Shown here: one piece after another, positions 2,473 to 18,705 of the stretch | Position numbering within the stretch: position 1 is the first letter of the stretch | Layout of the letters: each line of letters starts with the position of its first letter | DNA from: Alphaproteobacteria bacterium | Lineage (GTDB): Bacteria; Pseudomonadota; Alphaproteobacteria; GCA-2731375 | Reading direction: 5' to 3' | DNA length: 64,000 bases | Assembly: GCA_021776235.1 (NCBI GenBank) | Contig: JAJFGG010000011.1 | Location: forward strand, 38,248 to 102,247 | Made by a program: the position numbers and the translations under genes | Notes under the pieces: generated by a model | Seen by the model: only the letters and a program-made list of their open reading frames with translations | What the model was told of the DNA's origin: nothing | The model's database searches: none

Positions 2473-3321
2473 TTATACCGGGCGGCTGCCTTGCAGCAGA
2501 ATGCGTTGATGCAGGCGCCGTTGACCGACGGGAAAATCCATGTTGACCGCATGCACCAGACAGCGGTTATCCCAGATCAGCAGATCTCCGACCCGCCATT
2601 CATGGTCATAGCGATAGCACGGTTGCGTCATACAGCCGGCAATCCATTCCAGTATGGCTTCGCTGTCGGCGGGCGCGACATCCATGACCCGGTCGGTCCG
2701 GTTGGCATTGAAATAAAACGCCTTCCTGCCCGTATCCTCGTGGGTGCGAACCAGAGGGTGAACGACTTCCGGCGTCTCATCCAATTCGCTCTGGGTTCGC
2801 GTTTTGGGCCGCACCGGGGCCCGTGGCGTGTCGTAGCGGTGGGCGGCGCGCAAACCGTCGACACGCTGCTTTTCCGCGGTGTCGAGGTCTTCATAGGCTC
2901 GCTGGGTATTGCAGAAACTGGTTTGGCCCCCGCTGTCGGGAATTTCGATGGATTGCAGCAGGGTCGCCTTGGCCGGAACCTCGAAATAGGAATCATCCGT
3001 ATGCCAGCCGGTCAACCGCATCTGCCGCAAATCCTGTGGCTTATCCTCGGGCCTGGCGTAGGTACTATCCAAGATAGAGACCTCCTGCGTTTCCGCATCG
3101 CGTTGACTGCGCAGCAGCTGCGCCTGCGGTTCGCCGAATTGGCGGGCCACGTTGGCGAAGTCCGCCGGGCGCAACGGCGCACCGCGGAAACACAAAAGAT
3201 GATGTTCGAGAAACGCATCCTGCACCGCCGCGTCGTCGTCTGCCGCCAACGGCTGCGAAAGATCCAGGCCAATGACTTCCGCGCCCAGAGCGTCGGACAA
3301 GGGCTTAATCTGTACGGCCAT
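2473..3321 (-). CDS. TauD/TfdA-family dioxygenase (taurine-dioxygenase-like)
   Basis: ORF track gives 2473..3426. The internal ATG at 3321 (MAVQIKPLSDALGAEVIGLDLSQPL…) is the typical TauD N-terminus. Contains the HTD motif (WHTDDSY) and a C-terminal DNRCLVH-type segment. Confidence 0.8.
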   Translation of the reverse strand: MAVQIKPLSDALGAEVIGLDLSQPLAADDDAAVQDAFLEHHLLCFRGAPLRPADFANVARQFGEPQAQLLRSQRDAETQEVSILDSTYARPEDKPQDLRQMRLTGWHTDDSYFEVPAKATLLQSIEIPDSGGQTSFCNTQRAYEDLDTAEKQRVDGLRAAHRYDTPRAPVRPKTRTQSELDETPEVVHPLVRTHEDTGRKAFYFNANRTDRVMDVAPADSEAILEWIAGCMTQPCYRYDHEWRVGDLLIWDNRCLVHAVNMDFPVGQRRLHQRILLQGSRPV

Positions 3322-3500
3322 GACAGCGTCCTTTTCGATGGCTTGTGGCACGGATGTGCGATTATAGGGGGCTTGGATCAATGATGAAATACCCCTGCCC
3401 CGCGAACTATGTGCCCGACTAGGCAATCCATACCGCTTCTGTTAGGGCGAAATATCGTGAAAGGCTGATCCTATACTGCTATCGGCGGCCAGACCGCTAC

Positions 3501-3870
3501 TCATTCGAGGCTATTGTCCCGAAACAAATTCCCATTGACCCGATCAGGACCATGTTCGCGGAGGAGGACAAAGGCGCGGCAATCAGAACCGGCCTGGTAT
3601 GCGGTCCTTATACCAACCCGCGTTGATAGGGACCCATAGAGACGCTTTGCGGGGGCTTTCGGTTGGCGTCGCGCACGCCTAACGATACCCGGTATCGCTG
3701 CGTTCAAAGTCAGAAGATTAGTCTGACGGGCAATATCGTCGATCAAGCTTACCACTTGACCAATTTTCCCACCGCTCCGGCAGTCGACGCGCCATCAAGC
3801 ACAAACGGCATCGGCGACAGCGCCAAGGGAATCATGACGGTTCCCAGAAGTGTTGCTTTTCTTTGCCCCT
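3501..3870 (-). pseudogene. Deletion-derivative remnant of the P460-repeat/cupredoxin/chemoreceptor cassette: N-terminus of the 18702..19781 protein joined to a fragment of the chemoreceptor signalling domain
   Basis: The minus strand at 3870..3781 reads MIPLALSPMPFVLDGASTAGAVGK…, matching MIPLALSSLPFALEGASAAKA of the gene at 19781. After a frameshift, 3755.. reads [20 protein letters not shown], matching [27 protein letters not shown] of the chemoreceptor at 16656..18323. Similarity is then lost. Embedded in a 700-bp AT-rich non-coding patch. Confidence 0.55.
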
Positions 3871-4152
3871 TGGCACTTCGCCAAGTTCTCATTAAAAGTG
3901 CAGATTAGGCAATAAAAGGCCCAGATAAAACGGAAACAATGAACTTCCAGCACTCAAACAATCCACGTCTTGGATTAAAACTGCTCTGAACATTGATGAA
4001 ACAATAGATATGTTTGGTCAAAGCCTTGCCAGAAACTAAAAACATTTATGTCAATGACATAAACTTTTTGTTACTGGCAAAAGCCGCTCATTATCCAAGC
4101 CAGAACAAAATAACGGTCCTAACAGTGCGATCCGTGCTCATTTACCTAATCT

Positions 4153-4494
4153 TTATTGACAGGTGATCTTTAACGACATCTGCTCAAAATATGCTGCGGA
4201 TCGAACATCAATGGCGCCAGGGTGATCAAACGTCATCACAGCCACATCTCCCGGCTTTTGAATGCCAAGGCTGAATACCTGCCCAGGGCTAAGAGAATAG
4301 ATGGCGTGTTTAGCGCTATCGGAATTCTGGAAGCGTACGGTGTCGCCACGTTTGATGTGGAGGGAATCGCGGCTGAATTTGAGGCCCTCGATCGTTATCG
4401 TGTGGACGGCAGCGGATGCGCCCTGGAATGGGGCAACAGAGAGCGCCAGTACGCCTGCACACAGGATGGATTTAAGACAATTAGGCAATAACAT
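4153..4494 (-). CDS. Secreted cupredoxin-fold protein; degenerate paralogue of the amicyanin-like gene at 18349..18705 lacking the Cys and Met copper ligands
   Basis: Signal peptide (MLLPNCLKSILCAGVLALSVAPFQGASA). KHAIYSLSPGQVFSLGIQKPGDVAVMTF aligns with RHNVYSKSAGFKYLKIKKQKPGDRDSVTI of 18349..18705. Where the paralogue has LCALHPKM this copy has MTFDHPGA, so Cys and Met are lost and His is retained. Confidence 0.55.
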   Translation of the reverse strand: MLLPNCLKSILCAGVLALSVAPFQGASAAVHTITIEGLKFSRDSLHIKRGDTVRFQNSDSAKHAIYSLSPGQVFSLGIQKPGDVAVMTFDHPGAIDVRSAAYFEQMSLKITCQ

Positions 4495-5012
4495 GTTGGA
4501 GCTCCTTAAGATTGGAAATTTTTACTAAGTTAACATCGTCGCTGACGGTTTACTCAGATGTCGCCTATTTCCACTAATTCCAAGAGTAGTCCGTAGGTGT
4601 GAATTTTGTGTTACGACACATGGAGCGGTGATTTATTCTGGAGATTGGTCAGAATACTCAAACACAGCGGTGCGAGCAGGCGATGCGAAGCGCCCAATGA
4701 GACTTGCGCGCGGGCTCACTGAACCGGCCGGGTTCGTGACCCCGAAGCCGGACGTGCTCTGAGGTCTCTCGCTATTTAATCGCGCCGGCGCGTAGGTCGC
4801 CAGGGCGCCGACCGAGGTCGGAATCACTGTGACGATGGTGCAGTCGTCGGCCAGATGGCCCGTATATGGGCTTTGGCGGGCAATTGAGAGATGGTCGAGT
4901 ACGGTGGACCGTTGGCGAGGCGCGCGCGATGACCGGGCGGCCAGTGATGCCGCCGTTTTCCGCGCCCGGAGCAAGCGAAGCCAAGCGCCGAGGCCGGCGG
5001 GAACGGTCGCCG

Positions 5013-6776
5013 ATGCTTTGGGTCTGGTCGTCGCTACGTTGCCAAAAACTTCGAGATTGCGTGGTGGACGGACCAAACGATACACTGACGACCTCGCCAT
5101 GCAAGCGATCTCTGGGAAGGGAGTTGTTGAAGGTGAACGTACCTTTGACGGGGCCGGAGGCGGCGGAAGCAGTTAAGCAGTGCTCGTACGCGCTGGCCTC
5201 GCGGCCGGATTTTCCAGAGGCCGCGCGGCTGCTCGCCAGCCTGTTGCAGCGCTACGCGTTCAACGTCGAGACCGACCTTTCGCCGCGCGGCCTGCAAGCT
5301 GCGTTCGCGTTCAAGAATATCGACAGGCAGGCGTTGTGCAATGGTGCACTTGCCTTTCTGAAATGCCGGCCGCCGCGGGCCGATGTGCTGGCACGCGGCC
5401 GGGCCGACGGTTGGGACGCAGCGGCGGCACTGCTAACCCGCAAGGGCGCACGGCTTTTGCGCGACAGATTGTTCAGGTCCGCCCTGATCCATGGCGTTGT
5501 CGCCGACATCGAGATCGAGTTCCTGCTGACCGCGCTGCGGCGACGCCTGCTGCTGTCGCCGATGCTGCTCGCGGCGCGGCCGGTCTATGAATTCGCGTGC
5601 GTGCTGATCCGGCAATGCCTGAACAACGGGTATGTCTTCTTCGCCGATGAAGAGGAAAGGCTCCGTCTAGGCGAACTGAATGTGGATATTGACGCGATGC
5701 TCGAAGGTGACGCGGCGGCGGGCGGCGACTTCCTGCTGCTGTCACTGTACCGCCCGTTTCATGAAACACTCGGTCAAGAGGCGCGCACCGCCGACCAGGT
5801 GTCGCCCCAGGCCCTGCGCGCCGTGCTGCGCGATGAATTGGCGGCCCGCCGGATGGAGGCTGCGTATGCGGACAGCCTGCCCCGATTGACAGCAATTACC
5901 GACGAAATCTCTCGTCAGGTCGCCGACCAATATACCCACGACCCATATCCCCGTTGGCTCAGCCTGCAGGCACCGCAACCGGGAGGAGCCAAGGATCACA
6001 TGCGCGGCCATTTCTCCGCCGATGCGCTCGCCGCCATCGATGGCCCGTGCGATGTTCTGATCGCCGGCGCCGGAACCGGCCGTCAGGCGGTACATTCAGC
6101 CATTGGCTATGGTGCCGCGGCGCGGGTGCTGGCGATCGACCTGAGTGCGCCGAGCCTCGCCTACGGTGCGCTTATGGCCGAAGCGCTGGAAGTGGCGAAC
6201 CTGCGCTTTGCGATCGGCGATATCCTGCGCCTCTACGAGACCGGCGACCACTTCGATGTGATCGAATGCGTCGGTGTTCTGCATCACATGGTTGATCCCT
6301 TTGAGGGCTGGCGCGCGCTGCTCGATCGACTCCGCCCCGGCGGGCTGATGCTGATCGGACTATACAGCGCTTTGTCGCGCCGGGTCATTCAGGCGCTGTC
6401 CGAAGACCCGGATTGGCCGGGTTCGAAGGCAGACGATGACGCACTGCGCGCCTACCGGCAAAAGCTGATGGACCGCGCATCCGGCGATGATGCTTTCGCG
6501 CTGACGGGTTCAGTCGATTTTTTCACCAAGAGCGGCTTCCGCGATCTCGCCCTGCATGTCAGCGAGCGGCCATGCACGATCCCTGAAATTCGCGACTTCA
6601 TGGCCGCCCGGGGGCTCGAATTTCACGGCTTCAGCCTGCCGGACGAAACCTTGCGGGCCTATGCGGATGCCTTCCCCGGTGACGAGGCACCCGGCACGCT
6701 CGATCACTGGTGGGCGTTCGAACAGGAAAACCCGCAAACCTTCAACAGTATGTACCTGTTCTGGTGCCGTAAGTGA
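5013..6776 (+). CDS. Class I SAM-dependent methyltransferase with a long N-terminal helical/TPR-like domain
   Basis: Motifs DVLIAGAGTGRQAV (SAM-binding GxGxG), VLAIDLS, FDVIECVGVLHHM, LRPGGLMLIGLY. The track ORF starts at 4866, but that upstream part overlaps unconvincing reading frames. Start placed at the in-frame ATG 5013; an alternative is GTG 5134, preceded by GGAG. Confidence 0.65.
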   Translation: MLWVWSSLRCQKLRDCVVDGPNDTLTTSPCKRSLGRELLKVNVPLTGPEAAEAVKQCSYALASRPDFPEAARLLASLLQRYAFNVETDLSPRGLQAAFAFKNIDRQALCNGALAFLKCRPPRADVLARGRADGWDAAAALLTRKGARLLRDRLFRSALIHGVVADIEIEFLLTALRRRLLLSPMLLAARPVYEFACVLIRQCLNNGYVFFADEEERLRLGELNVDIDAMLEGDAAAGGDFLLLSLYRPFHETLGQEARTADQVSPQALRAVLRDELAARRMEAAYADSLPRLTAITDEISRQVADQYTHDPYPRWLSLQAPQPGGAKDHMRGHFSADALAAIDGPCDVLIAGAGTGRQAVHSAIGYGAAARVLAIDLSAPSLAYGALMAEALEVANLRFAIGDILRLYETGDHFDVIECVGVLHHMVDPFEGWRALLDRLRPGGLMLIGLYSALSRRVIQALSEDPDWPGSKADDDALRAYRQKLMDRASGDDAFALTGSVDFFTKSGFRDLALHVSERPCTIPEIRDFMAARGLEFHGFSLPDETLRAYADAFPGDEAPGTLDHWWAFEQENPQTFNSMYLFWCRK

Positions 6777-6799
6777 GTGATATCGGCTGTATGGGGCGC

Positions 6800-7897
6800 T
6801 TATAGGACAACATCGGTTTTCGGGTCGATCAGATGCATATGCGCCATGTCTATGGTGAATTCCATCGGCTGGCCGACCTGGCTGACCGCCCGCGGCCGCG
6901 ATCGGGTGGTAATTTCAGTCTCGCCGATATTGATAAACACCATGGTATCTATACCCATGGGTTCGAGGACGACAACATCGGACGTGAAATTGTGATGTGT
7001 CGGATCGGTATGTGGCCGTTTGTCGGTGATATGTTCGGGTCGTATGCCGAACAGCATCTCCCTTCCGACACCGGGGCCGCAACGGTCCAGGCGGTCCGCC
7101 GGCACGGGAAACGACAGATTATCCGCCAGTTGGATTGACAAGCCGCCGTTCGCAGCCTCGACTTGGCACGGTATGAAGTTCATCGAAGGAGAGCCAATGA
7201 AGGAAGCCACGAACAAGGTTTGGGGGTCGTCGTACATTTCCTCCGGTGTGCCGACCTGCTCGATGACGCCTTCGTTCATCACGACGATCCGGTCGGCCAG
7301 GGTCATTGCCTCGACCTGGTCGTGGGTGACGTAGACCACCGTGGTTTTCACCCGCTGATGGATCTTTTTGATTTCGGTACGCATCTGCACTCGCAGCTTG
7401 GCGTCCAGGTTGCTCAAGGGTTCATCGAATAGGAAGACCTGGGGGTCGCGGACGATGGCGCGGCCCATGGCGACGCGCTGGCGCTGGCCGCCGGAAAGCT
7501 GCTTCGGCCGACGCTCCAACAGCTCGCCAATGTTCAAGATATCCGCCGCCATATTGACCCTGCGGTCAATTTCTTCCTTTGGCGTCTTGCGAAGCCTCAA
7601 GCCAAAGGACATGTTCTGAAAGACGCTCATATGTGGATAAAGGGCGTAATTCTGGAACACCATGGCGATGTCGCGGTCCTTGGGCGCGACCTCGTTGACG
7701 ATGCGATCGCCGACGGAGATATCGCCAGCGGTGATATCTTCCAGTCCCGCGATCATGCGTAACGTCGTGGTCTTGCCACAGCCCGACGGGCCGACCAGGG
7801 CGATAAATTCGTTATGTTCGATATCCAGATTGATGCCGCGCACGGCCGGAACTTCGTCGTAGTACTTCCAGAGATCTCTCAGTTGAATTTCCGCCAT
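6800..7897 (-). CDS. ABC transporter ATP-binding protein (MalK/UgpC-type, sugar import)
   Basis: Walker [10 protein letters not shown], signature [14 protein letters not shown], Walker [13 protein letters not shown], and a C-terminal MalK-like regulatory domain. Confidence 0.9.
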
Positions 7898-7978
7898 TAC
7901 CTGCTCTTCTTTCCTTCGTCTTTGATGCTATTGCGCCAGCCGTCGACCGCGCAGTTACCTGATTGCCTGCCCGATTGC

Positions 7979-8890
7979 TTACTTGATCGCACCCGCCGTC
8001 AGGCCAGAGGTGAAGTAGTCCATGAAGAAGCCATAAATCATGATGATCGGCAGCGCGCCAATGAAGCAGGCCGCCATCAATGAACCCCAATAGTAAATGT
8101 CACCCCGGATCAACTCGGTTATGACGCCGACGGAGATGGTCTTCGCGGCCTCGTCCTGAATAAACACCAGGGAATAAAGCAGCTCGTTCCAACTGAGCGT
8201 GATGGAAAACAGAATCGCGCACATGATGCCAGGGACCGCCATAGGCAAGACGACCCGGAACAGCGCACCAAGGCGCGAGCAGCCGTCCAGATAGGCGCAT
8301 TCCTCCACCTCCACCGGGATAGTTTTGAAATAACCCATCAATAGCCAGGTCACGAATGGGATCAGGAACGTCGGATAGGTCAGGATAAGCGACCAATAGG
8401 TATCCCGAATGGGGACATAGTCGTCGATGGTGTTGATGACATCGATCAATGGAATAAACAGCAACGTCTGCGGTATTAGATAGGTAATGAAGACGGCAAC
8501 GCCGAACAACTCAACGCCGCGAAAACGCAAGCGCGCCAGGGCATAGGCGGCGAGTGTCCCGATCGAGACCGAGATTATGGTAACCGCCACCGTGACGATC
8601 AGAGTGTTGACAAACCAGTGCTGGAAAAAGCTGGTGTTGGTGGCCAGATAGACATAATGCTCGGTGGCGATGCCGGTCGCCCAGAACGGCGAGTTGCCCA
8701 GATTGTTTATCTCCTGATCCGTCTTAATCGAGGTGATGAACATGATGTAGAAGGGAAACAGCGCGAAGAACACATAAGGCAACAACGCGACATAGTTCAA
8801 TGCCGCTTTGCGCCGCCGCCAGATCGGCACCTTGTTGATGCCCACCTCCCGGCCACCGCTGCCGGTTAACGTTGTAGTACTAGAGCTCAT
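7979..8890 (-). CDS. ABC transporter permease (MalG/UgpE-like)
   Basis: Polytopic membrane protein. Overlaps the upstream permease by 11 bp, suggesting an operon. Confidence 0.85.
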   Translation of the reverse strand: MSSSTTTLTGSGGREVGINKVPIWRRRKAALNYVALLPYVFFALFPFYIMFITSIKTDQEINNLGNSPFWATGIATEHYVYLATNTSFFQHWFVNTLIVTVAVTIISVSIGTLAAYALARLRFRGVELFGVAVFITYLIPQTLLFIPLIDVINTIDDYVPIRDTYWSLILTYPTFLIPFVTWLLMGYFKTIPVEVEECAYLDGCSRLGALFRVVLPMAVPGIMCAILFSITLSWNELLYSLVFIQDEAAKTISVGVITELIRGDIYYWGSLMAACFIGALPIIMIYGFFMDYFTSGLTAGAIK

Positions 8891-9845
8891 GCGAAGTATC
8901 CCTTCTCACCATCCGGAGCAAAAAGACCACGATCAATACCAAAATCGGGAACAGGAACAGCGCGACCGCTGCCCCCAGCGCGATTTCGTGATTCAAAATG
9001 CCGTAGGTGAAGGAGTAGGTAGAGAACAGGTGCGTCGAGTTCATCGGACCGCCCCTGGTCAACACATAAATGATGTTGAATTCGCCCAGCGTAAAGATGG
9101 TCGAGAACAGGATGATGATGGCCAGCACCGGCCGCAGCAACGGCAGAGTTATGGAGCGGAACTTCCGCCAGGTCGAGGCCCCGTCGATTTCCGCAGCATC
9201 GTAAAGATGCTCCGGGATGGACATCAGTCCGGCCAGGATGGTGATAATGAAAAACGGAATACCGCGCCAGATATTGACGAAGATCACCGAGGCCATGGCC
9301 AAGGTCGGCTCACCAAGGAAATTATAGGGACCGAAGCCCATCACACTGAACGGCCACATGTTCTCCAGGATCCAGTTGATGTGGCTATAGGTCGGGTCCA
9401 GGATCAGCCACCAACCCAGCGTGGAAAGCGCTGTCGGCGCAACGAATGGCAATAGTACCGAGCCGCGGAAGAAACGCTTCAGCTTCAAAATGCGTTGCAA
9501 CAGCAACGCACAACTGAGACCCAGCACCACCTTGAACAGGACCGACCAAAAGGCGAACAGCAAGGTGTTCCAGATTGTCTCTATGAAAATATCGTCTTCG
9601 GTCAGGATATAAATAAAGTTTTCCAGACCAACATACGATGCCGGCTCGCCGACAAAAGCGTCGGAGACACTGAACCAGATTGCCAGACAGAAGGGATAAA
9701 CCACCAGCGAGATCATGACGATGGTCGCGGGCAGCAAGAAACCATAGCCGTCGATGTCGGGGCCGAGGCGTTTCTTCACCCGTGAACGAACAGAGCTGGG
9801 CGACGACGACGCCGCCGCCCGCTCCACATTCGGTACGCTTACCAT
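8880..9845 (-). CDS. ABC transporter permease (MalF/UgpA-like)
   Basis: Multiple TM helices, with the EAA-loop-like segment IDGASTWRKFRSITLP. Confidence 0.85.
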   Translation of the reverse strand: MVSVPNVERAAASSSPSSVRSRVKKRLGPDIDGYGFLLPATIVMISLVVYPFCLAIWFSVSDAFVGEPASYVGLENFIYILTEDDIFIETIWNTLLFAFWSVLFKVVLGLSCALLLQRILKLKRFFRGSVLLPFVAPTALSTLGWWLILDPTYSHINWILENMWPFSVMGFGPYNFLGEPTLAMASVIFVNIWRGIPFFIITILAGLMSIPEHLYDAAEIDGASTWRKFRSITLPLLRPVLAIIILFSTIFTLGEFNIIYVLTRGGPMNSTHLFSTYSFTYGILNHEIALGAAVALFLFPILVLIVVFLLRMVRRDTSHEL

Positions 9846-9909
9846 AGCTCGTCAATCATCCGAGAATGATCAACGAGCCAAGTTACTTCCTTGGCATTCA
9901 TCACGCCGG

Positions 9910-11265
9910 CTACCCCTCCCGTTTGGCGGCCCGCTTGTAGATCCGCTTCATTTGCGTTTCCAACTTCTTGACCGCATCTTCAGCTGAGGCCTTGCCGACC
10001 GCCACGGACGCCGCCGCATCAGGCAGCAGATACTGATCGGTGACCGTCGCCATGGCCGCGGTTGGCACGCCAGGCCAGCCAATAGCATGGGTGTACCAGC
10101 CGATAAACGGCGCAAAATAGTACTTGGAATTGGATGCATAAAGCGGATGCAACGCGTTTCCGGCAAGCACCGGCTGGTTGTAGCCTTTACTGGCCGTTAA
10201 ATGCTTTTCAGCATTCTCTTTCGAGAAATGGAAGGCAAGAAACTCCTTGGCCAATTCCTTTTCCTTGGCAAATTTCCAGACCCCGGCGTTGTTGAAAGAC
10301 GCGGCCATGTGACGGCCCGCCGGTCCCTTGGGCGGCATGATGTGATTGATCGAGTGATGCACCAGCAGGTCCTTGTTATCCGGGTCCACCGTCTTAGCCT
10401 TGACCGCAGAACGGTAGGCAGAGATCGGATTGAGGATCATGCTGCATTTGCCGGAGTTCAGACACACATTGTTGTTGCGGTCGTCCCAGGCCAACACTTC
10501 ACTGGTCATAGCGTCTTTATAAAGCGCCGCGATGAACTTGAAGGCTTCCACCGTCTCTTTTGAGTTGACGGCGACGGTCTTGCTGTCTTCATCCACCAGC
10601 TTGGCGCCATAGGACCACAGGATACCACGCAGAATCATGTTCGAATCGACCGAGTGGGCAAGCTGGATGCCGACCGGATGGCCTTTTTTCTTCAGCTTGC
10701 TGCCGATCCGATGCACATCGTCCCAGGTATCGGGCAGGTTCTCGCCAATTCCGGCGATCAGATCCGTGCGCAACGCCAAAGGGAACGAAATAAAGTACCA
10801 TGGGATGGCTTTAACATGGCCATCAGGACCTACGCCTACACCCTTGGTGGTAAAGCCGCCGCCGGCCTTGCCGATTTTCTCATAAAGGCCGTCGAGGTTC
10901 TCCAGATGTTTGGCATAGAGATGCGGGTTGGAGTTGCCTACGGCAACCAGATCATGCCCCTTTTGCCCCTGCACCTCACCCGCTAGGACCGCCGGCAACT
11001 GCAAATGGGCGACACGGTCCAGACGCGTCTTGACACCAGCGGCCTTGCCGAATTCCGCCAGCTGCCGCTCCAATTCCACATCCGAAGCCGGCACGAAATG
11101 CGAGTTCGTGAGCATTTTCAGCTCGCGTGTCTGCGCCGTCGCCGGTGCGATGCCCGTCGCCAGTATGCCCGCCAGACCGCCGGTCACAAGGCCCGTGTCC
11201 TGAAGGAATTTTCGCCGGCTGGATGATTTCTTGGCTTTGTTTAGTTGATCATGTTGCTTAGACAT
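9910..11265 (-). CDS. ABC transporter substrate-binding protein, Tat-signal (family 1 extracellular solute-binding)
   Basis: Start reassigned from track 11373 to ATG 11265 (MSKQHDQLNKAKKSSSRRKFLQDTGLVTGGLAG, a twin-arginine motif), preceded by GAGGGAGG. Length about 450 aa. Confidence 0.85.
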   Translation of the reverse strand: MSKQHDQLNKAKKSSSRRKFLQDTGLVTGGLAGILATGIAPATAQTRELKMLTNSHFVPASDVELERQLAEFGKAAGVKTRLDRVAHLQLPAVLAGEVQGQKGHDLVAVGNSNPHLYAKHLENLDGLYEKIGKAGGGFTTKGVGVGPDGHVKAIPWYFISFPLALRTDLIAGIGENLPDTWDDVHRIGSKLKKKGHPVGIQLAHSVDSNMILRGILWSYGAKLVDEDSKTVAVNSKETVEAFKFIAALYKDAMTSEVLAWDDRNNNVCLNSGKCSMILNPISAYRSAVKAKTVDPDNKDLLVHHSINHIMPPKGPAGRHMAASFNNAGVWKFAKEKELAKEFLAFHFSKENAEKHLTASKGYNQPVLAGNALHPLYASNSKYYFAPFIGWYTHAIGWPGVPTAAMATVTDQYLLPDAAASVAVGKASAEDAVKKLETQMKRIYKRAAKREG

Positions 11266-11324
11266 ACTTGACCTCCCTCTTTGCTCTCTGTTTTTAAAGA
11301 CATTGGTGATTGTCGTCTTAGTCG

Positions 11325-12137
11325 TCAGCTCCCCGTATTTACTGCCTGCCAATAGTCGGCATTCAGGTTCCAAAGGTGCGCGTCATGCGCCGATTCTACA
11401 CAGCGGCGAAGACTCGGATAAATTTGCAATTTGAGATCCAGATTGCAGCCCGCCACGACACCGCGGGCGAGGCCCTGAGCCTCCTTGGACATGGCCGCCA
11501 TTGCTGGTCCGGCGATAGCGTCTTGCACCACCTGTTCGCGCACCAGGGTCTCTTCGCCAAGATCCACCGGCAGTGAGTTTCCCAAAGCGGCTAACCAACG
11601 CACCGTCGCGCCACGGCCCGCGGCCTCATCGATAATGCTGCGGCCGGCCTGGCGCAGAGGTCCCGTGGCGAGGGCAATTTCGGCCTCGCTCAGGGGATTT
11701 TCGTCGCCTGCCTCGGGCACCGGCAAAAGTGTGACCTGTTCACCCACGACGACGCTGACCTGGCTCAGACCCAGTTCTGCAAGATGGCTTTTAGCAATGG
11801 AAATACGCACCGCGACCTGCATGCGAAGCGTCGTCATTTCAAGTACCCGCGCCGGATCCAGATTTACCTCCACGCCCCGCCGGTCCCTGCCCGTAACACG
11901 AATGCCATCGGCGCTGGCAAGTCGGTACGCCGTCCCGGCAGCCGGTGTAGGGCGTTCGTTCAACAGACAATAACTGCTGAAAGTCGCAGCGCATTGCTCG
12001 CCGCGGCAGGCTAGTTGGACCTCGCCCTGGGTTGACATCAACGCCAGGGGTTGAGTCGCGGCACCTGCTCCCGAAACGATGGAAAAAGCCCCCACGATAC
12101 TAACGACAACACTCACTAAGACGAACTTCATAGGCAT
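11325..12137 (-). CDS. Hypothetical periplasmic protein (signal peptide), located between the two paralogous binding proteins
   Basis: N-terminal MPMKFVLVSVVVSIVGAFSIVSGAGAA signal. No recognised domain. Does not overlap the binding-protein gene once that gene's start is corrected. Confidence 0.5.
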   Translation of the reverse strand: MPMKFVLVSVVVSIVGAFSIVSGAGAATQPLALMSTQGEVQLACRGEQCAATFSSYCLLNERPTPAAGTAYRLASADGIRVTGRDRRGVEVNLDPARVLEMTTLRMQVAVRISIAKSHLAELGLSQVSVVVGEQVTLLPVPEAGDENPLSEAEIALATGPLRQAGRSIIDEAAGRGATVRWLAALGNSLPVDLGEETLVREQVVQDAIAGPAMAAMSKEAQGLARGVVAGCNLDLKLQIYPSLRRCVESAHDAHLWNLNADYWQAVNTGS

Positions 12138-12407
12138 GGCCTTGCTCCCGTCTGTATGAGAGACCGGCTCCCCATCACCCGAGCCAAATTAGCCGATCTA
12201 TCTTTGTCATCACAAAGTTGACAGAAAAATGGTTGCATGAATTCGGGGCAACGGTCAATCGTCAGATTAACCTTTTTGCCCCGAACAGAACGCCCATGGC
12301 CCTGTGGTGGAGCCGCGACCCGGAAAAATACCGGCGATTATGGGGCAGGAAGCACCAGATGAACTCAACTCACGTTCAAGAACATAGCCTTGTAACGTTC
12401 GCGCCGG

Positions 12408-13766
12408 CTACGCCTTTTTGTTGAACCGGCGATAAATGCGCTTCACTTGTTTTTCCAGCTTGGCCGCCGCTTCCTCGGGCGAGTGTTTGCCGGTGGCGCA
12501 GGCCGCCATGGCGTCGGGCAGCAGGAACTGATCCGAGACCATCTGTGCCGCTGCGGTCGGAATGCCGGGATAGCCAATGGCATGGGTGTACCAGCCAATA
12601 TACTGCGCGAAGTAGTATTTTGAATTAGACGCATAGAGCGGATTCATCGCGAAGTTTTTCAACACCGGCTGGTTGAAGCCACCGCTCGACCGCAAATGCT
12701 TGTCCACGCTGTCCCGGGTAAAGTGGAAGTCCAGGAATTCCTTGGCCAGTTCCTTTTGCTTTGCGAACTTCCAAACGCCGATGCCGGCGAAGGAAGCGGA
12801 CATGTGGCGTCCTGCGGGCCCCTCCGGCGGCAGGATGTGGGTGATCGTCTGATGGATCTGCCTGTCGGAGCCCGGTATCAGGGCCTTGCTTCTTACGGCG
12901 GCGCGATAGGCGCTGATCGGGTTCAGGATCATGCTGCATTTGCCCGAGACCAGGCAAACGTTGTTGCTACGATCATCCCAGGCCAGAACCTCTTCGTCCA
13001 TGGCGTCGTTGTAAAGCGTTTTGGCGAACTTGAAGGCCGCAACCGTTGCCTTGGAATTGATGGCAACCGTCTTGCCATCGGCTTCCACCATCTTGCCGCC
13101 AAAGGACCACAACAGACCACTGAGAATGTTGCTGCTGTCGCTGGCGTGGGAAAGCTGGATACCGAGCGGATAGCCTCGCTTTTTCAATTTACTGCCAATG
13201 CGATACACATCGTCCCAGGTATCGGGCAGGTTTTCGCCAATGCCCGAGATCAGGTCGGTCCGCACCGCAAGGGGGAATGATATGAAATACCAGGGTAGAG
13301 ACTTCTGCGCTTTGCCGTCACGGCCTTTGCCAAACAGGGGCGAGGTCCAGCCGCCGGCGCGCGCGCCGATCTTGTCGTAGAGATCGTTCAAATTCTCCAG
13401 ATGCCTGGAATAAAGATGCGGCATTGAATTGGAGGCAACGACCAGATCGTGGCCCTTTTGGCCCCGCACTTCGCCCGCCAACAACGCCGGCAACTGCAGG
13501 TGCGCCACCCGGTCCATACGGACCTTGACGCCCGCCGCCTTGCCGAACTCTTCGAACTGGACCTTCAACTCCTCGTCCGAGGAGGGCACGAAATGGGCCC
13601 AGGTGAGCATCTTGAGCTCACGCGGCTGGGCAACCGCCGGGGCGACGCCAGACGCCATGATACCCGCCAGGCCGCCAGTGGCGCGGGCACTATTGCGCAG
13701 AAACTTGCGCCGGCTCGATTTAGCATTGGTTTTGGAACCCTCAATCAGGTCGAATTCCTTGTACAT
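12408..13766 (-). CDS. ABC transporter substrate-binding protein, Tat-signal; paralogue of 9910..11265
   Basis: SSRRKFLRNSARATGGLAG Tat motif. Long collinear similarity to the downstream binding protein (…RELKMLT…HFVP…VAHLQLPA…GEVRGQKGHDLV…PWYFISFPLA.RTDLI.GIGENLPDTWDDV.RIGSKLKK.G.P.GIQL.H…). Confidence 0.85.
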   Translation of the reverse strand: MYKEFDLIEGSKTNAKSSRRKFLRNSARATGGLAGIMASGVAPAVAQPRELKMLTWAHFVPSSDEELKVQFEEFGKAAGVKVRMDRVAHLQLPALLAGEVRGQKGHDLVVASNSMPHLYSRHLENLNDLYDKIGARAGGWTSPLFGKGRDGKAQKSLPWYFISFPLAVRTDLISGIGENLPDTWDDVYRIGSKLKKRGYPLGIQLSHASDSSNILSGLLWSFGGKMVEADGKTVAINSKATVAAFKFAKTLYNDAMDEEVLAWDDRSNNVCLVSGKCSMILNPISAYRAAVRSKALIPGSDRQIHQTITHILPPEGPAGRHMSASFAGIGVWKFAKQKELAKEFLDFHFTRDSVDKHLRSSGGFNQPVLKNFAMNPLYASNSKYYFAQYIGWYTHAIGYPGIPTAAAQMVSDQFLLPDAMAACATGKHSPEEAAAKLEKQVKRIYRRFNKKA

Positions 13767-13940
13767 TCACTTTTGCCCACTCTATCTCATGCTATTGCAA
13801 AAAGCAGTCCCCAGTTGGCATGATCAAGCAAAGCCGCATGCTTCCAAACCTGATGGGCAGGCCTTCCCAGCGGACTTCGCCACCGGTCCGGCCCGCATTC
13901 AGTTCCCCGTCCGTGTGAGAGACAAGAGGCCGAGACAGGT

Positions 13941-13966
13941 CTTATACCGACGACCATCGGTATAAG
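13941..13966. promoter_or_regulatory. Perfect 10-bp inverted repeat CTTATACCGA-N6-TCGGTATAAG about 175 bp upstream of the second binding-protein gene (candidate operator)
   Basis: Seen directly in sequence. Lies in a roughly 940-bp intergenic region between divergent genes. Confidence 0.35.
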
Positions 13967-14730
13967 GCATCCACCCGGACGAGCGCCCCGACCACGCCAT
14001 GGCCGATGTCCTGCGTGCGCCTCTCATTGGGCTGGATCATACCCAGCGCATCAAATTGGCGCTTGCGATCCGCTTTCGTTATACCCGCCACCGCGATAGC
14101 CGCTGGATAGACCGGCATAGCCACCTGATAGAAGAAGAAGACCGGATCTGGTCACGCCGGATTGGTCAGGCCCTGCGTCTTGCCCATACCCTTTCGGGTG
14201 GTGTTACAGGGTTATTGGCGCAATATTGATTGCAGCTGAATGGGCCCGGCATCACTCTGTACTGTAAACCGGGAACCAGACATCTGATTTGTGAAGCGGC
14301 CGGCAAACGCCTTACCGCCATGGCGCGAAGCTTTGAGCAGCAGGCCCGCATCGTCTCTGAATGATCTACATACTCTAATGCTTGGGTGAAAGAGTCGGCT
14401 TATGTAGAGCCAAGCAACACCCGCACAGCCGTATCCCAGGAGGCCGCGACATTTTCCTGCCCGACATGACGGCAGATTGGAAGATTATGGAAATATTTTT
14501 TACTGAATAGAGTGGTTAATGTGACATAAGTGATTGGTTCAATTGCTCTGTTTATCGAGGCCCTAGGCGCATTTAGACTAAACACTCGATAGGGCGACAG
14601 ATGCATACAACAAGAAATTCACAAAAAATTAAATGAATACCAGTAAAAATGCGGTGAGCAAAAATATCAATGTTCCAAGTATAGCTGTATCTCTTTTCTG
14701 CTATTGCCGTTGCTCCACCGGAGATCGAAC

Positions 14731-16392
14731 ATGAACTTGCGTGCGAAACTGATTGCCGGTAGTGCGGCTGTCATTCTGTTCACGGCTTTTCAGGGCATGA
14801 TTGCCATCAACCGTATCGACCAGACGGGGCGGCTGGTTAGTGAGTTATATAATGGTCCGTTAATGGCGATCAATTTCGCCCGCTCCGCCAAGGCCAGCTT
14901 TCTGCTGCTCGACCGTGAGATGACGGTGGCCGCCGGCAAACCGGCCCTGTTGGCCTCGGAAGACTTTGTCGAGGCATTGACCGATCTGTATGAAAGTTTT
15001 CGCGGGGACCTCGAGGTGGTGCTGGAGCGGAGCGAGGATGACCGCCTCGTCAACGACCTGAACGCTGCTGGTGCCATGGCCGACCGATGGTGGAGTCTGA
15101 GCGAACAGGCGATTGCCTCGTCCGAGGGGGGTGAGGCCATGATCCCAATCGACGAATTGCGCGAAGTGGCGGTATCAACGGACGGCCAATTGGACCTGAT
15201 TATCGAATTTGCCATCGAAAACGGTTTCGATTTCGACCTCTCCGCCGAGCAGGCGGTCGCCGAAACGCGGCGTTTTACCATTTTGGTCATAATGGGCACG
15301 GTGGTTATCGGTTTTCTCATCGCTATGGTTCAGGGCCGGATGATCAGCCAGCCCGTAACCCGGATGACCCGCCGCATGGTGGCAATGGCCGCCGGCGACT
15401 ACGCTGTCGAGATTGAAGATCTCACCCGGCGCGACGAGATTGGCGAAATGGCCCGGGCGCTGGCGGTGTTCAAGGAAAATGCCCTGGATAAGGAACGCCT
15501 GGAGGCCGAGCAGGCCGAAGGTGAGCGTCGGGCCGAAGAGCAGAAGAAGACCATGATGGCTAAACTAGCGGACACGTTCGGGGCGACCATCGGCGGGGTC
15601 GTCAATACGGTCTCGGCCTCTGCAGTCGAGATGGGCGACACCGCCGTCAGCATGGCCGGCAACATGGACAAAAGCGGCAGCCGCTCTTTGGAGGTGGCCG
15701 AGGCCGCCAATCGTTCCCAAGGCAATGTCGCGACCGTTGCTTCCGCGACGGAAGAGCTGGCGAATTCGATCGATGAAATCGGCAGCCAGGTCGAGCGCTC
15801 GGCGACAAGAGCCGGCGCCGCAGTCGAGGAAGCCGACCGCTCGAACGAAACGATCAATGGTCTGGCCGGGGCGGTCGACAAGATCGGCGACGTTGTCGCG
15901 CTGATCAACGGCATCGCTGGCCAGACCAACCTGCTGGCGCTCAATGCAACCATCGAAGCGGCCCGCGCCGGCGAGGCCGGCAAGGGCTTTGCCGTGGTTG
16001 CATCCGAGGTTAAGAACCTGGCCAATCAGACCGCGACGGCGACGGAAGAGATCGCGCATCAGATCGACGCGGTACAGGGGGCGACGGGCGACGCGGTGGC
16101 GGGCATTGAAGGGATCGGCAGGACGATCCGTCAGATGAGCGAGATTTCCGCCGAGATCTCCGCTAGAGTGGAGCAGCAGCGTGCCGCGATTGGTGAAATC
16201 GCCCGCAATGCAAGCGCCGTCAGCGACGATGCCACATCGGTCTTGCACAGCGTTACCGAACTGTCGCAATCCTCGGCCATGTCCTACGGCGCCGCCATCA
16301 ACGTGCTTTGGGCCTCGCAGGATATACAAAAACCCATGGCCGAACTGCGCGGCAGCGTGGAAACCTTCCTGCAGGACGTTCGCACTGCCTGA
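14731..16392 (+). CDS. Methyl-accepting chemotaxis protein (chemoreceptor) with periplasmic helical sensor, HAMP and signalling domains
   Basis: Start at ATG 14731 (GGAG 7 nt upstream; the track uses TTG 14704). Signalling domain [44 protein letters not shown]. Two TM segments. Confidence 0.9.
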
Positions 16393-16655
16393 TTGCGGTC
16401 AGCACAAACAAGACCCGATCCGCCAGGGCATATTGACAACGCTGGACATTATGGGCGCGCTGTCGCCCCTATCCGGAAAGGTCACTCTGTAAAGAGTATG
16501 GTAGCCAATATCGCCACCGGATCGAAGAGGATACCTGGAGCGGGCGCTCCTTTGGCGAGCGGATTGTTGGCGTTCGAGATCGGCATCTCCTGCAACATGT
16601 TCAATAGCAAATCGGCCTTTGGGCGCCGCCAAGACCAACCTGCGCCGGAATGCCT

Positions 16656-18323
16656 TCAGACAGCGCGGATCTTCTGCAGGAACTGGTTGATCTGGCTGTC
16701 CAGATCCGCCGAATGCTGAAGCAGGCCGTCAGCTGCGCCCAGGACTTCGTGTGTCATCTCGTTGGTCCGGCTAACCGCCTCGGCGACCTGACCCATGCCG
16801 GCACCGACTTCGCGCGTGCTATCCGCCGCGCGCCGGACGTGACGGCTGATCACATCCGTGGCCTCCGCCTGCTGTTCACCAGACTGGGCAATGGCGGAGG
16901 CGTTCTCGTCCAAAGTCTCAATGGTACCGTTGATGCCGCGAATGGCCGCGACGGTTTCTTCGGTCTGGCTTTTTATGACAGCGATCAGGGCATCAATCTC
17001 GTGCGTGGAACCGGCGGTTTGATTGGCCAGGTTTTTCACTTCCCCCGCGACCACGGCAAAGCCTTTGCCTGCCTCGCCCGCCCTGGCCGCCTCGATTGTC
17101 GCGTTCAAGGCCAGCAGATTGGTTTGACGGGCAATGTCGTCGATAAGGCTCACCACCTGACCGATTTTTCCCACTGCTTCGTCCAAACCGCCCACTTTCG
17201 CGCTGATTTCCCGCGCTGCCGCGACCGCGCCACCGGTGACGTTGGCTGAATTCGATGCCCGGTCTCCGACTTCACGGATGGAGGTGGTTAAGCCTTCGGC
17301 TTCGCTGGCAGCCGATTGCACATTCTCGGTCGCCTGCTCGGCCGCCGTCGCCACGGAGTCTGATTGCTGAGAGGTCTTTCGCGCGGTGTCGTCCAGGCCG
17401 GCAGCTATCTCGCGCATGTGACCTGACGCTTGGGAAATTGCCGCCGCGACCTGACGGATCGTAGCCTCGAATTCGGCAGCTATTCGCTCTCTGGCTTCAC
17501 GACGTTGTTCGATGGCCAGTGTCTCAGCCCTAACCTGTTCGCCCTGCAGGCGTTCGACTTTCAAGGCATTTTCCCGGAACACGTCAATGGCACGGGCCAT
17601 ATCCCCCAATTCATCACTCTTCTCGCGGTAGGGAATCTCGCCATCGAAGTCACCCTCCGAAAGCTGTGTCATGCGGCTGGATATGGCATTCATGGGGCGC
17701 CCAAGATAACGACTGATCATGAATACGATGACCATCCCAAGAGACAAGACAAGCACGGCACCGATGATCTGTATGTTCAGGGTTTGCTTGGCGGCGGCGT
17801 CGGCATCTTCGCGGAAGTTAAAACCCTGTTCAGTGGTAAATTCGACCAGCAAGGAAAGGCTTTCCTCGGCCTCGGATAACAACGCTTGTTTCTCGGCCTT
17901 CAATATATCCGCGGCAGCGGCATCGGAAATGTCCGCCGCGATAATCCGCTCGGCCAATACATGCCATTGTTCTAGCAACGCCAGGGTTTCGTCAATTACC
18001 TCCCAAATCTCCTGGTCCGCGACCCGCTCTCGGACGACCGCAAGATCGTCGCGGATCTCACTTTCCAATTCGGCGGCAGCCTCCTGGCGTTCCGCCCGCA
18101 AATCGGTGTTGGCGGTGAAAAGGATCTGGGTTATCTCGCGATCGCTGCGGACAAAATTGGTCAGGGCGTTGCGCGCGAAACTGATCGATAACAATGGCTT
18201 ATCATACATTTCAGCGGTCAGCAGGCTGACCCGCAACAGGCCATCCATGGCAAATCCGCTTGCAACCGCAGTCATCACAACCACACTCGCCACACCGATA
18301 ACAAGTTTGTTTCCAATACGCAT
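16656..18323 (-). CDS. Methyl-accepting chemotaxis protein; paralogue of 14731..16392; last gene of the P460/cupredoxin cassette
   Basis: [47 protein letters not shown]-terminal sensor domain similar to that of the convergent chemoreceptor ([20 protein letters not shown] versus [20 protein letters not shown]). Confidence 0.9.
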
Positions 18324-18348
18324 ACAGTACTAATCCGAGAATCAACCG

Positions 18349-18705
18349 CTACTTGGTTATCACAACGGTTAATTTCATCTTCGGATGCAAAGCGCACAGA
18401 ATAACGGCGGTGCCTGCGTTTTTGATCGTCACCGAGTCCCGATCTCCGGGCTTTTGCTTCTTGATCTTCAGGTATTTGAACCCGGCGGACTTGCTGTAAA
18501 CATTGTGGCGCTTGCGCTTTTCCTCGTTGACGAAAGTCAGGGTATCGCCAACCTTGGCGTTGACTTTTTTTGGCACAAACTTTTTACCCTTTTGGGAAAT
18601 GACAATGTCCGCGGCCACGGCTTCGGTTGTGAACAATGTTCCGGTCATGCATAGGGCAACCAGGGTGATGGCTGGAACCAAAGTTTTGATATCAAACTGT
18701 CTCAT
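18349..18705 (-). CDS. Amicyanin/pseudoazurin-like blue copper protein (cupredoxin), periplasmic
   Basis: Signal peptide. Type-1 copper ligand set: His in RHNVYS, and Cys-x2-His-x2-Met in CALHPKM (compare the amicyanin CTPHPFM motif). Start ATG overlaps the upstream gene's stop (ATGA), suggesting translational coupling. Confidence 0.75.
   Translation of the reverse strand: MRQFDIKTLVPAITLVALCMTGTLFTTEAVAADIVISQKGKKFVPKKVNAKVGDTLTFVNEEKRKRHNVYSKSAGFKYLKIKKQKPGDRDSVTIKNAGTAVILCALHPKMKLTVVITK

Follow-up and report, generated by a model that had tools for sequence, protein, structure and literature searches.

The window, the whole 64,000-nt stretch of DNA that was analyzed, carries on its minus strand an intact cassette of genes for a P460 protein, a cupredoxin, and a chemoreceptor of the four-helix-bundle (4HB) type (MCP2). 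About 12.6 kb away lie short pieces resembling parts of the same cassette (P460′ and MCP′), close to a TauD-family gene, and beside these pieces is a separate small open reading frame (ORF), here called pcup. A related metagenomic contig, L034, serves as the reference for gene order. The features are as follows.

3322–3488, minus strand: apparent ancestral chemoreceptor-TauD intergenic region, which stayed with the relic copy (alignment to L034; TauD ATG at 3321)
3489–3497, minus strand: putative final codons of MCP′, the lost chemoreceptor copy; the alignment is least secure at this end
3498–3692, no strand assigned: unmatched filler of 195 nt, where about 430 nt of MCP′ (codons 411–553) would be expected
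3693–3779, minus strand: MCP′ fragment, codons 383–410 (signaling hairpin tip), 83% nucleotide identity, E 5e-17
3764–3779, minus strand: putative deletion junction, a 16-nt microhomology common to the overlapping P460′ and MCP′ alignments
3764–3871, minus strand: P460′ fragment, codons 1–36 (signal peptide), 80% nucleotide identity, E 9e-20
3872–4077, minus strand: AT-rich patch, apparently what is left of a duplicate P460 upstream (promoter) region (alignment and spacing)
4026–4080, no strand assigned: 55-nt near-perfect palindrome (inverted repeats I3 and I4) that borders the relic on its outer side, 73 nt past the pcup stop codon
4078–16655, no strand assigned: DNA between the cassette copies, missing from L034 (synteny blocks)
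4153–4494, minus strand: pcup, an intact gene for a 113-aa secreted cupredoxin-fold protein, outside the duplicated unit
16656–19989, minus strand: intact P460/cupredoxin/MCP2 cassette with its upstream region (ORFs, Pfam), the surviving paralogue of the relic

Two pieces of the relic align to the intact cassette by blastn with similarities above chance: minus-strand positions 3862–3764 match the 5′ end of the P460 gene (19772–19674; 79/99 nt; E 9e-20), and 3779–3700 match MCP2 (17181–17101; 67/81 nt; E 5e-17). At the protein level (tblastn), P460 residues 4–36 are 70% identical to the relic over 33 aa, and MCP2 residues 385–410 are identical at 24/26 positions (92% over 26 aa), against merely 72% for MCP1. 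The identical runs reported in the preliminary description, 7/7 for P460 (VMIPLAL) and 18/20 for the chemoreceptor, are correct, and a three-way alignment of the relic, the window P460 gene, and L034 extends the P460′ homology to the former start codon (3871–3869), widening the retained segment from codons 13–33 to codons 1–36. The relic peptide was closer to the window P460 protein than to any of the N termini of the 120 best P460 homologues. Pfam recognizes the MCPsignal domain in the MCP′ fragment (E 2.9e-5) and nothing else in the relic. At the junction, the relic reads CGGAGCGGTGGGAAAA, the P460 gene CAAAGCGCCGGGACAA, and MCP2 CGAAGCAGTGGGAAAA.

The relic is larger than first noted, as it includes a copy of the P460 upstream region (4077–3975) and the chemoreceptor stop with the following intergenic region (3497–3322). 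The former aligns with 19989–19883 at a score of 21, the highest of 1134 windows on both strands (mean, 10.6; standard deviation [SD], 1.7; best unrelated window, 17), and its distance to the start codon, ~103 nt, is equal in the relic and the intact copy. GC content in this region is 39% in the relic versus 48% in the intact intergenic region. At the other end, the last codons of MCP′ (GCGGTCTGGCCGCCG) correspond to GCTGTCTGACCTCCG in L034 (12/15 aligned), and L034 13043–13240 aligns with minus-strand positions 3497–3316 at a score of 25 (200 shuffles: mean, 11.1; SD, 1.6; maximum, 19); the same L034 intergenic region has no match downstream of the intact MCP2 stop codon. The fragments, upstream region, and MCP stop all occur in the order and on the strand seen in 19989–16656. 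The filler at 3498–3692 gave no alignment above shuffles with the 3′ part of MCP2, the 3′ part of the L034 MCP gene, or the whole cassette. No trace of the copy's own cupredoxin gene is left in the relic, and a search of the window returned no further cassette fragment. The locus had been described as an AT-rich noncoding stretch of roughly 700 bp, which applies to 3872–4152 (39% GC) and not to 3322–3871 (52 to 58% GC).

The lesions in the relic are numerous. The P460′ start codon is changed from ATG to AAG (3871–3869), the ribosome-binding site is degraded, and ~2.5 kb is missing between the P460′ and MCP′ parts. The fusion was originally in frame; the frameshift reported after the splice is the loss of 1 nt from an A-run, which puts MCP′ out of frame with P460′. 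The MCP′ stop codon, at the weak end of the alignment, is changed from TGA to TGG (3491–3489). Homology to a functional gene is combined with a destroyed reading frame, and, judged from its sequence, the relic probably has no coding function; the 47-aa and 84-aa ORFs at 3501–3892 should be regarded by annotators as not being genes. The relic is not an assembly artifact, since a contig from an independent read set (L001) is 100% identical over 3616–4868. This contig is the sole other copy; orthologous relics were not detected in other genomes. The minus-strand segment 4077–3489 (~590 nt) is probably the pseudogene relic of a second, directly repeated unit comprising the P460 upstream region, P460, cupredoxin, and 4HB chemoreceptor. 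A duplicated cassette with one copy collapsed by internal deletion, as had been proposed, is borne out by the fragment order, collinear flanks, and synteny with L034.

In L034, the gene order is aldolase, P460, Copper-bind, MCP, TauD(282), and TauD(359), with nothing in between, and the intact cassette of the window is orthologous to L034 10013–13051 (76% nucleotide identity; blastn). Three DNA blocks are shared: L034 5452–9513 corresponds to window 24192–20125, 10013–13051 to 19769–16656, and 13224–16561 to 3332–3 (the blastn block ends at 3332). The upstream neighbors remain with the intact cassette and the downstream ones with the relic, and ~12.6 kb separates the two copies. This comparison, which the preliminary description had suggested, places the relic at the ancestral position of the cassette before two TauD genes. 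Both copies have the same orientation and are collinear over several independent segments, and L034 provides a single-copy relative, which represents one related species-level arrangement. Divergence between the window and L034 is uniform across flanking and cassette genes (synonymous difference, pS, 0.46 to 0.60), and the intact copy accordingly looks native. A distant P460 relative, L041, has a second P460 gene downstream; its P460 neighborhood contains no cupredoxin or MCP gene, and L041 was dropped as an outgroup because, without these adjoining genes, it cannot polarize the change. No genome with an intact second cassette copy was found among 185,579 species-representative genomes and JGI metagenomes.

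The 12.6-kb segment holds pcup, a gene for a 636-aa methyltransferase-domain protein, an ABC sugar-type transporter, a Ppx fragment, and MCP1. The large ORFs scanned with Pfam contained methyltransferase, ABC transporter, and MCP domains only, with no integrase or transposase domain, no tRNA gene was found in 1–22000, and third-codon-position GC (GC3) of the segment genes resembles that of the flanks, with the exception of pcup. The segment does not have the characteristics of a mobile genomic island.

Several observations bear on the timing of the duplication. In the P460 5′ segment, 27 sites favor grouping of the relic with the window copy versus 10 and 12 sites for the alternatives, pS is 0.27 between the relic and the window versus 0.63 between the window and L034, and in the upstream region the two window copies can still be aligned with each other, whereas the window and L034 cannot. 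Together, these suggest that duplication postdates the split from the L034 lineage. MCP′ and MCP2 differ by 13 synonymous versus 3 nonsynonymous changes (omega, 0.03), and the almost entirely synonymous nature of these differences indicates that the TauD-proximal copy was functional for a long period after duplication. The pS of MCP′ versus MCP2 is 0.67, on merely 19 sites, and that of MCP2 versus its L034 orthologue is 0.39. This excess divergence of MCP′, also relative to P460′ (0.27), counts against such a simple history and would fit a mosaic origin, a 5′ gene conversion tract, or noise.

A history consistent with these data would begin with the state kept in L034, a single cassette with a class II aldolase gene on one side and two TauD-family genes on the other. 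The cassette unit would then have been duplicated in the window lineage after its separation from the L034 lineage, and the ~12.6 kb between the copies could have arisen by tandem duplication with insertion at the junction or by Campbell-type integration of circular DNA that bore a homologous cassette. The TauD-proximal copy, which is inferred to have included a cupredoxin gene before its deletion, would have worked for most of the time since duplication. Its collapse may have started with an in-frame deletion of ~2.5 kb between 16-nt imperfect repeats, probably mediated by microhomology, joining P460 codon ~32 to 36 to MCP codon 383. Loss or replacement of ~430 nt of the MCP 3′ part may have followed, then the dropping of a single nucleotide from the A-run with the resulting frameshift, and finally mutation of the start codon, ribosome-binding site, and stop codon.

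Two other histories of the relic were considered. A full second copy may never have existed, the cassette pieces being templated filler at a break repaired during insertion of the 12.6 kb by the TauD gene. Only ~100-nt and ~80-nt pieces are clearly recognizable, and they meet at a microhomology, a patchwork of the kind typically left by end-joining or template-switch repair; another gene fragment (Ppx_C) is present elsewhere in the 12.6 kb. Filler, however, would start identical and drift neutrally, whereas the omega of MCP′ indicates long purifying selection. The collinear homology also runs into the upstream region, where the spacing is as expected, and at the other end through the MCP stop to the intergenic region, and the P460′-MCP′ fusion was originally in frame, all of which makes templated filler very unlikely. 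Alternatively, both copies and the 12.6 kb could be ancestral, and homologous recombination between the repeats could have removed one copy from the L034 lineage together with the DNA in between. Direct repeats around a segment make it prone to loop-out deletion; the GC3 of the intervening genes is native-like, and MCP′ is at least as far from MCP2 as the L034 orthologue is. Against this stand the sister relationship of the relic and window copies in the P460 5′ segment and the upstream regions that align within the window and not to L034, although gene conversion between the copies could explain both, and an ancestral pair is considered very improbable. Duplication after the split from L034, followed by decay of the TauD-proximal copy, is preferred.

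The ORF at 4153–4494 is, as first described, intact and leader bearing, and AlphaFold2 and Foldseek support a cupredoxin fold. The leader is consensus-like and, by eye, ends ASA|A. The AlphaFold2 model has eight strands and a pLDDT of 84 overall (~95 in the core), and Foldseek matches it with a probability of 1.0 to amicyanin, plastocyanin, pseudoazurin, and purple cupredoxin (TM, 0.6 to 0.7); a profile search also matches amicyanin (E 3e-4). Assignment to Pfam families is weaker: PF13473 scores 17.5 bits, below the gathering cutoff of 27, and neither PF00127 in Pfam nor any NCBIfam model matches. In family alignments, the residues at the metal site are His63, Ser99, Tyr102, and Met106, where 57 of 70 single-domain relatives have the HCHM ligand set. 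The ligand Cys, equivalent to Cys92 of amicyanin, is replaced by Ser99 and the second His by Tyr102, and the loop contains a one-residue insertion; the N-terminal His63 and Met106 are kept. Loss of both Cys and Met had been deduced from a pairing of LCALHPKM with MTFDHPGA; the loss of Cys stands, and the apparent loss of Met reflects a misalignment found in a suboptimal BLASTP segment only. A type-1 copper site is not expected with Cys replaced by Ser, His by Tyr, and a longer loop. The protein thus has the fold of type-1 copper cupredoxins without their ligand set and is probably a periplasmic cupredoxin-fold protein lacking a type-1 copper center. A lipoprotein anchored through Cys12 was also considered and rejected, as no lipobox was seen by eye and the Cys is Phe in P0002. 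A penultimate Cys is conserved across the pcup lineages.

Is pcup the cupredoxin of the dismantled cassette, neofunctionalized after losing its ligands while the rest of the cassette decayed, as the preliminary description had it? It adjoins the relic on the same strand and is homologous to the cassette cupredoxin (34% identity; pairwise E 4e-9). Its closest ligand-bearing relative also lies beside heme proteins and a 4HB chemoreceptor, and the family tends toward such clusters. The order of the genes is nevertheless wrong, because the pcup stop codon is at 4153 and the duplicated unit begins at ~4077, which places pcup outside the unit and upstream of the P460′ promoter relic rather than between P460′ and MCP′. 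The 34% amino acid identity also contrasts with 70 to 92% for the relic fragments, and pcup is more similar (46%) to a ligand-bearing cupredoxin of a MauG/cytochrome c cluster. In a neighbor-joining tree, pcup groups with the Cys-less proteins P0130 and P0136, apart from the cassette cupredoxins of the window and L034. The Ser/Tyr state recurs in at least three other lineages, ~25% diverged and with nonhomologous flanks, pcup is under purifying selection (omega, 0.09 to 0.24), and its GC3 of 0.56, the lowest of 17 genes, is atypical of its neighbors (0.64 to 0.76). Origin of pcup from the decaying cassette is therefore extremely unlikely. Position, phylogeny, the shared Ser/Tyr replacements, and omega indicate that ligand loss in pcup predates, and is independent of, the duplication.

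Instead, pcup is a separate gene and belongs to a rare clade of Cys-less cupredoxins that purifying selection maintains. This His/Ser/Tyr/Met clade comprises pcup and four metagenomic lineages and, more distantly, P0130 (HSHM) and P0136 (HTEM), and only three representatives with >50% identity were found among 1.84 billion. A scan of 185,579 species-representative genomes and JGI metagenomes returned relatives with ≤47% identity, none adjoining a P460 or MCP gene. Contigs with pcup orthologues (L003, L004, and L031 to L033) or other Cys-less proteins (L038 to L040), all ≤1.4 kb, have flanks unlike those of the window, and no remains of P460 or MCP genes were detected on them. Ligand-bearing relatives of the Cys-less proteins occur in heme-protein/cupredoxin/4HB-chemoreceptor clusters. 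It is conceivable, but doubtful, that the Cys-less proteins are functional periplasmic proteins in which the blue-copper center has been swapped for a hard-donor metal site or a redox-inert surface and which act as partners or decoys in such sensing clusters. Literature searches returned nothing specific on ligand-less single-domain cupredoxins.

The palindrome between pcup and the relic is predicted to form an RNA hairpin (−25.9 kcal/mol; z score, −4.5); at the corresponding site in the intact copy, the z score is 0.1. A role as a conserved pcup terminator was rejected, as no hairpin follows the L003 orthologue and no U-run lies behind the hairpin. Rfam searches of 3200–5000 returned only subthreshold hairpin look-alikes (eukaryotic microRNA models) at the palindrome. 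Consensus scans found no sigma-70-like promoter site and one plus-strand terminator-like site, no more than expected by chance. In a weaker variant of the interpretation, the relic promoter region and palindrome may have been kept to control pcup termination or TauD expression.

The relic represents ordinary genome decay and not the remodeling of a cassette member, and the tempting story of a cupredoxin losing copper during cassette decay is removed. What is left is a clean worked case of the loss of a bacterial operon copy (duplication, long coexistence, in-frame microhomology deletion, and point decay), as reconstructed with a relative that anchors both ends, and a modest lead, namely a rare group of cupredoxins that lack the Cys ligand and are maintained by selection. 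The P460/cupredoxin/chemoreceptor cluster is a more interesting object than the relic; speculatively, from known cytochrome P460 chemistry, it could serve as a module that senses redox state or nitrogen oxides in the periplasm. Literature searches found nothing specific on a P460/cupredoxin/chemotaxis cluster.

The relic resembles bacterial pseudogene relics that arise when one copy of a duplicated segment undergoes deletion between short repeats; the resemblance lies in its directly repeated paralogous unit, its internal deletion with a 16-nt imperfect microhomology, its homopolymer frameshift with loss of start and stop codons, and its location at the syntenic position of a relative's functional gene. 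Unlike such relics, it is set apart from the other copy by 12.6 kb of unrelated genes instead of adjoining it, and the decayed copy apparently stayed functional over a long period (dS of ~0.3 or more) before collapse. Relative to the P460/cupredoxin/4HB-MCP cluster of the window and L034, the relic derives from a paralogue of the unit in the same order and orientation and keeps only the promoter region, the P460 signal peptide codons, 28 MCP codons, and the MCP stop. pcup shares with amicyanin, plastocyanin, and pseudoazurin (PF00127 and PF13473) a small Greek-key beta fold, a leader, the N-terminal His ligand, and the axial Met, whereas Ser takes the place of the essential Cys thiolate ligand and Tyr that of the second His, and the loop is one residue longer. 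Cupredoxin folds without a copper site include quinol oxidase subunit II (CyoA, without CuA) and the early-nodulin-like relatives of plant phytocyanins. Like these, pcup keeps the fold, has replaced ligands, and is under selection; unlike them, it is a free-standing 85-residue periplasmic domain of a tiny clade with a penultimate Cys.

On the minus strand, the interval from the TauD-family gene (start codon at 3321) to the open reading frame (ORF) at 4153-4494 contains no credible gene, but two short segments of it resemble the intact cassette of P460, cupredoxin, and chemoreceptor (MCP2) genes at 19781-16656 (minus strand):

3862-3764, minus strand: P460', matching the 5' end of P460 at 19772-19674 (79/99 nt, E 9e-20)
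3779-3700, minus strand: MCP', matching MCP2 at 17181-17101 (67/81 nt, E 5e-17)

Translated, P460' corresponds to P460 amino acids 4 to 36 (70%) and MCP' to MCP2 amino acids 385 to 410 (24/26). Pfam detects the MCP signalling motif in the MCP' fragment, which MCP1, the chemoreceptor outside the cassette, matches at only 72%. The whole 64 kb holds no other cassette fragments. Misassembly does not explain the patchwork, because a contig built from an independent set of reads matches 3616-4868 at 100% identity. The relic of a duplicated cassette proposed in the preliminary description is borne out by these P460 and MCP2 matches, and it is longer than was recognized there.

Three-way alignment with the orthologue on L034, a metagenomic contig carrying an orthologous cassette, shows that P460' homology reaches the former start codon (3871-3869, now AAG); ATG 3892, which opens a 47-amino-acid ORF, is therefore fortuitous. 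The ribosome-binding site has changed from GGGGGA to TGGCGA. Further upstream, the AT-rich spacer at 4077-3975 aligns with 19989-19883, upstream of intact P460, with a score of 21, the top value among 1134 windows tested across the two strands (mean 10.6, SD 1.7; best unrelated, 17). Given this alignment and the equal distance to the start codon in both copies (~103 nt), the AT-rich patch (39% GC versus 48% in the intact P460 promoter region) is a decayed copy of that promoter region. Toward TauD, 3497-3316 aligns with the terminal codons, stop, and following intergenic sequence of the L034 chemoreceptor (score, 25; shuffles, mean 11.1 and maximum 19); here the stop TGA reads TGG (3491-3489). 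The sequence past the intact MCP2 stop has no similarity to this L034 intergenic region. The 195 nt at 3498-3692 were assigned to nothing by Pfam or by alignment to the cassette or L034.

The P460' and MCP' alignments share 16 nt (3779-3764), and the junction reads CGGAGCGGTGGGAAAA in the relic, CAAAGCGCCGGGACAA in P460, and CGAAGCAGTGGGAAAA in MCP2. A microhomology-mediated deletion of ~2.5 kb, equivalent to 19673-17182, would have taken out the P460 body, any sequence between the two genes, and MCP codons 1 to 382. The fusion was in frame at first (…DGASTAGAVGK, then MCP residues), and the frameshift reported previously is real: a single A was later lost from an A-run. The relic is an ordinary, well-resolved pseudogene remnant.

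The P460 orthologue on L034 (P0009) is 77% identical, and the two regions compare as follows:

L034 gene order: adh_short, DUF952, aldolase, P460, Copper-bind, 4HB-MCP, TauD (282 aa), TauD (359 aa), malic enzyme
L034 5452-9513: DNA block matching window 24192-20125
L034 10013-13051: DNA block matching window 19769-16656
L034 13224-16561: DNA block matching window 3332-3
Window 4078-16655, between the copies: ORF 4153-4494 (pcup), a 636-amino-acid methyltransferase-domain protein, an ABC sugar-type transporter with two binding proteins, a Ppx_C fragment, and MCP1

L034 contains nothing that corresponds to window 3333-16655. From these blocks, the intact cassette retains the ancestral upstream neighbors, and the relic retains the ancestral downstream neighbors and intergenic region. 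The large ORFs scanned between the copies include no integrase or transposase, no tRNA was found there, and third-position GC content (GC3) there resembles that of the flanks, with pcup as the exception. MCP1 is a full-length MCP2 paralogue (36% identical) that equals it in length and layout. It lies at the other edge of the DNA missing from L034; MCP1 (14704-16392, plus strand) and MCP2 (16656-18323, minus strand) are convergent, with 263 nt between stop codons. The extra DNA also includes a gene-free 940-nt stretch (13767-14703), within which ORF 13999-14229 (plus strand, 76 amino acids) weakly matches the middle of Ppx_C, the exopolyphosphatase C-terminal domain (E 0.003, profile positions 73 to 141 of 187), and is probably another gene fragment.

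In the 117-nt P460 5' segment, 27 variable sites unite the relic with window P460, versus 10 and 12 for the alternatives. Synonymous difference (pS) is 0.27 between relic and window P460 and 0.63 between window and L034 over the first 60 P460 codons (0.46 to 0.60 throughout the orthologues), and upstream regions are alignable between the window copies but not between window and L034. These sequence comparisons place the duplication after the split from the L034 lineage, although still old; an ancestral two-copy state followed by loss in L034 is less likely. Between MCP' and MCP2 there are 13 synonymous and 3 nonsynonymous changes (omega, 0.03); hence, purifying selection acted on the MCP copy for most of the time it existed, and it was destroyed comparatively recently. 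The synonymous difference of MCP' (0.67, 19 sites) exceeds both that of P460' (0.27) and that of MCP2 versus L034 (0.39), a discordance that could reflect gene conversion affecting the 5' end, a mosaic ancestry, or sampling noise. The arrangement may have arisen by tandem duplication and a subsequent insertion at the duplication junction or, alternatively, by Campbell-type integration of a circle bearing a homologous cassette.

A near-perfect 55-nt palindrome (4026-4080; RNA hairpin, -25.9 kcal/mol, z -4.5) lies 73 nt past the pcup stop, exactly at the start of the P460-upstream homology. The homologous site upstream of intact P460 is unstructured (z 0.1), no U-run follows the hairpin, and no hairpin follows the pcup orthologue on contig L003. 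The palindrome is a candidate operator, rearrangement scar, or terminator. In addition, an exact 12-mer on the minus strand, TTATTGCCTAAT, is present at 4480-4491, as pcup codons 2 to 5, and at 3904-3915, 12 nt upstream of ATG 3892; ~0.08 chance matches are expected in 1.6 kb, and no similarity extends beyond the 12 nt.

ORF 4153-4494 (pcup) is a real gene: a good ribosome-binding site, AAGGAG, precedes it, and its leader ends, by eye, in ASA|A. Its model is confidently a cupredoxin (pLDDT 84 overall, ~95 in the core), with Foldseek probability 1.0 to amicyanin, plastocyanin, pseudoazurin, and purple cupredoxin. A profile of pcup matches amicyanin (E 3e-4). The protein scores below the Pfam cutoff and has no NCBIfam match. 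The VRSA[AV]YFxQM motif recurs in four other lineages on short metagenomic contigs (68 to 76% amino acid identity), where homology to the window ends with the coding sequence; pairwise omega is 0.09 to 0.24 at dS 0.8 to 1.8. An exhaustive search of 1.84 billion cluster representatives found only three with >50% identity.

The ligand change described previously (LCALHPKM to MTFDHPGA) came from a misregistered alternative alignment. Alignment with relatives gives His63 kept, Cys to Ser99, His to Tyr102, and Met106 kept, with one extra loop residue. The next two single-domain relatives also lack the Cys (P0130, H-S-H-M; P0136, H-T-E-M), and H-C-H-M is kept in 57 of 70 single-domain relatives. All pcup-type C termini read K-I-x-C-x; the invariant penultimate Cys (residue 112), the sole Cys of mature pcup, is missing in P0130, P0136, and ligand-bearing relatives.

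The preliminary description, whose observations largely stood and could be extended, was right about the relic but not about the cupredoxin, which it took for the altered cupredoxin of the cassette copy. In a rough neighbor-joining tree, pcup, P0130, and P0136 cluster far from the window and L034 cassette cupredoxins. Identity between pcup and the cassette cupredoxin is 34%, the pcup gene is not within the duplicated unit, and its GC3 (0.56) is the lowest among 17 genes. Therefore, pcup is not the cupredoxin of the duplicated cassette, and its ligand loss is older than, and independent of, the duplication.

Among orthologues, the one at L004 108-704, from a metagenomic lineage, has its C-terminal 77 residues fused to an unrelated N-terminal ORF of 120 residues that lacks a signal peptide; in that lineage, pcup has been rearranged or pseudogenized. 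In the L003/L031/L032 lineage, all contigs stop 40 to 260 nt past pcup, and a ~43-nt sequence (L003 333-374, L031 1222-1264; 84% identity) lies upstream of pcup in one contig and downstream in another, hinting at a dispersed repeat beside pcup in this population.

The closest ligand-bearing relative, P0006 (H-C-H-M), is 46% identical to pcup. Its gene is flanked by a MauG-type di-haem peroxidase on one side and by cytochrome c and 4HB chemoreceptor genes on the other (L002 1185-3508), a second kind of haem-protein, cupredoxin, and chemoreceptor cluster beside the P460 kind. The P460 family of the cassette has >900 members, most from alphaproteobacterial metagenome-assembled genomes. At L041 9001-10840, a second, shorter P460 gene comes after a 56% identical CNPC-repeat P460 homologue, and neither a cupredoxin nor a chemoreceptor gene accompanies them; the cassette of three genes is thus not a general feature of the family. 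Our best guess is that pcup is a putative periplasmic binding or adaptor protein of non-blue-copper type. It joins a known class, the cupredoxin-fold proteins without a type 1 site, as a rare member under selection.
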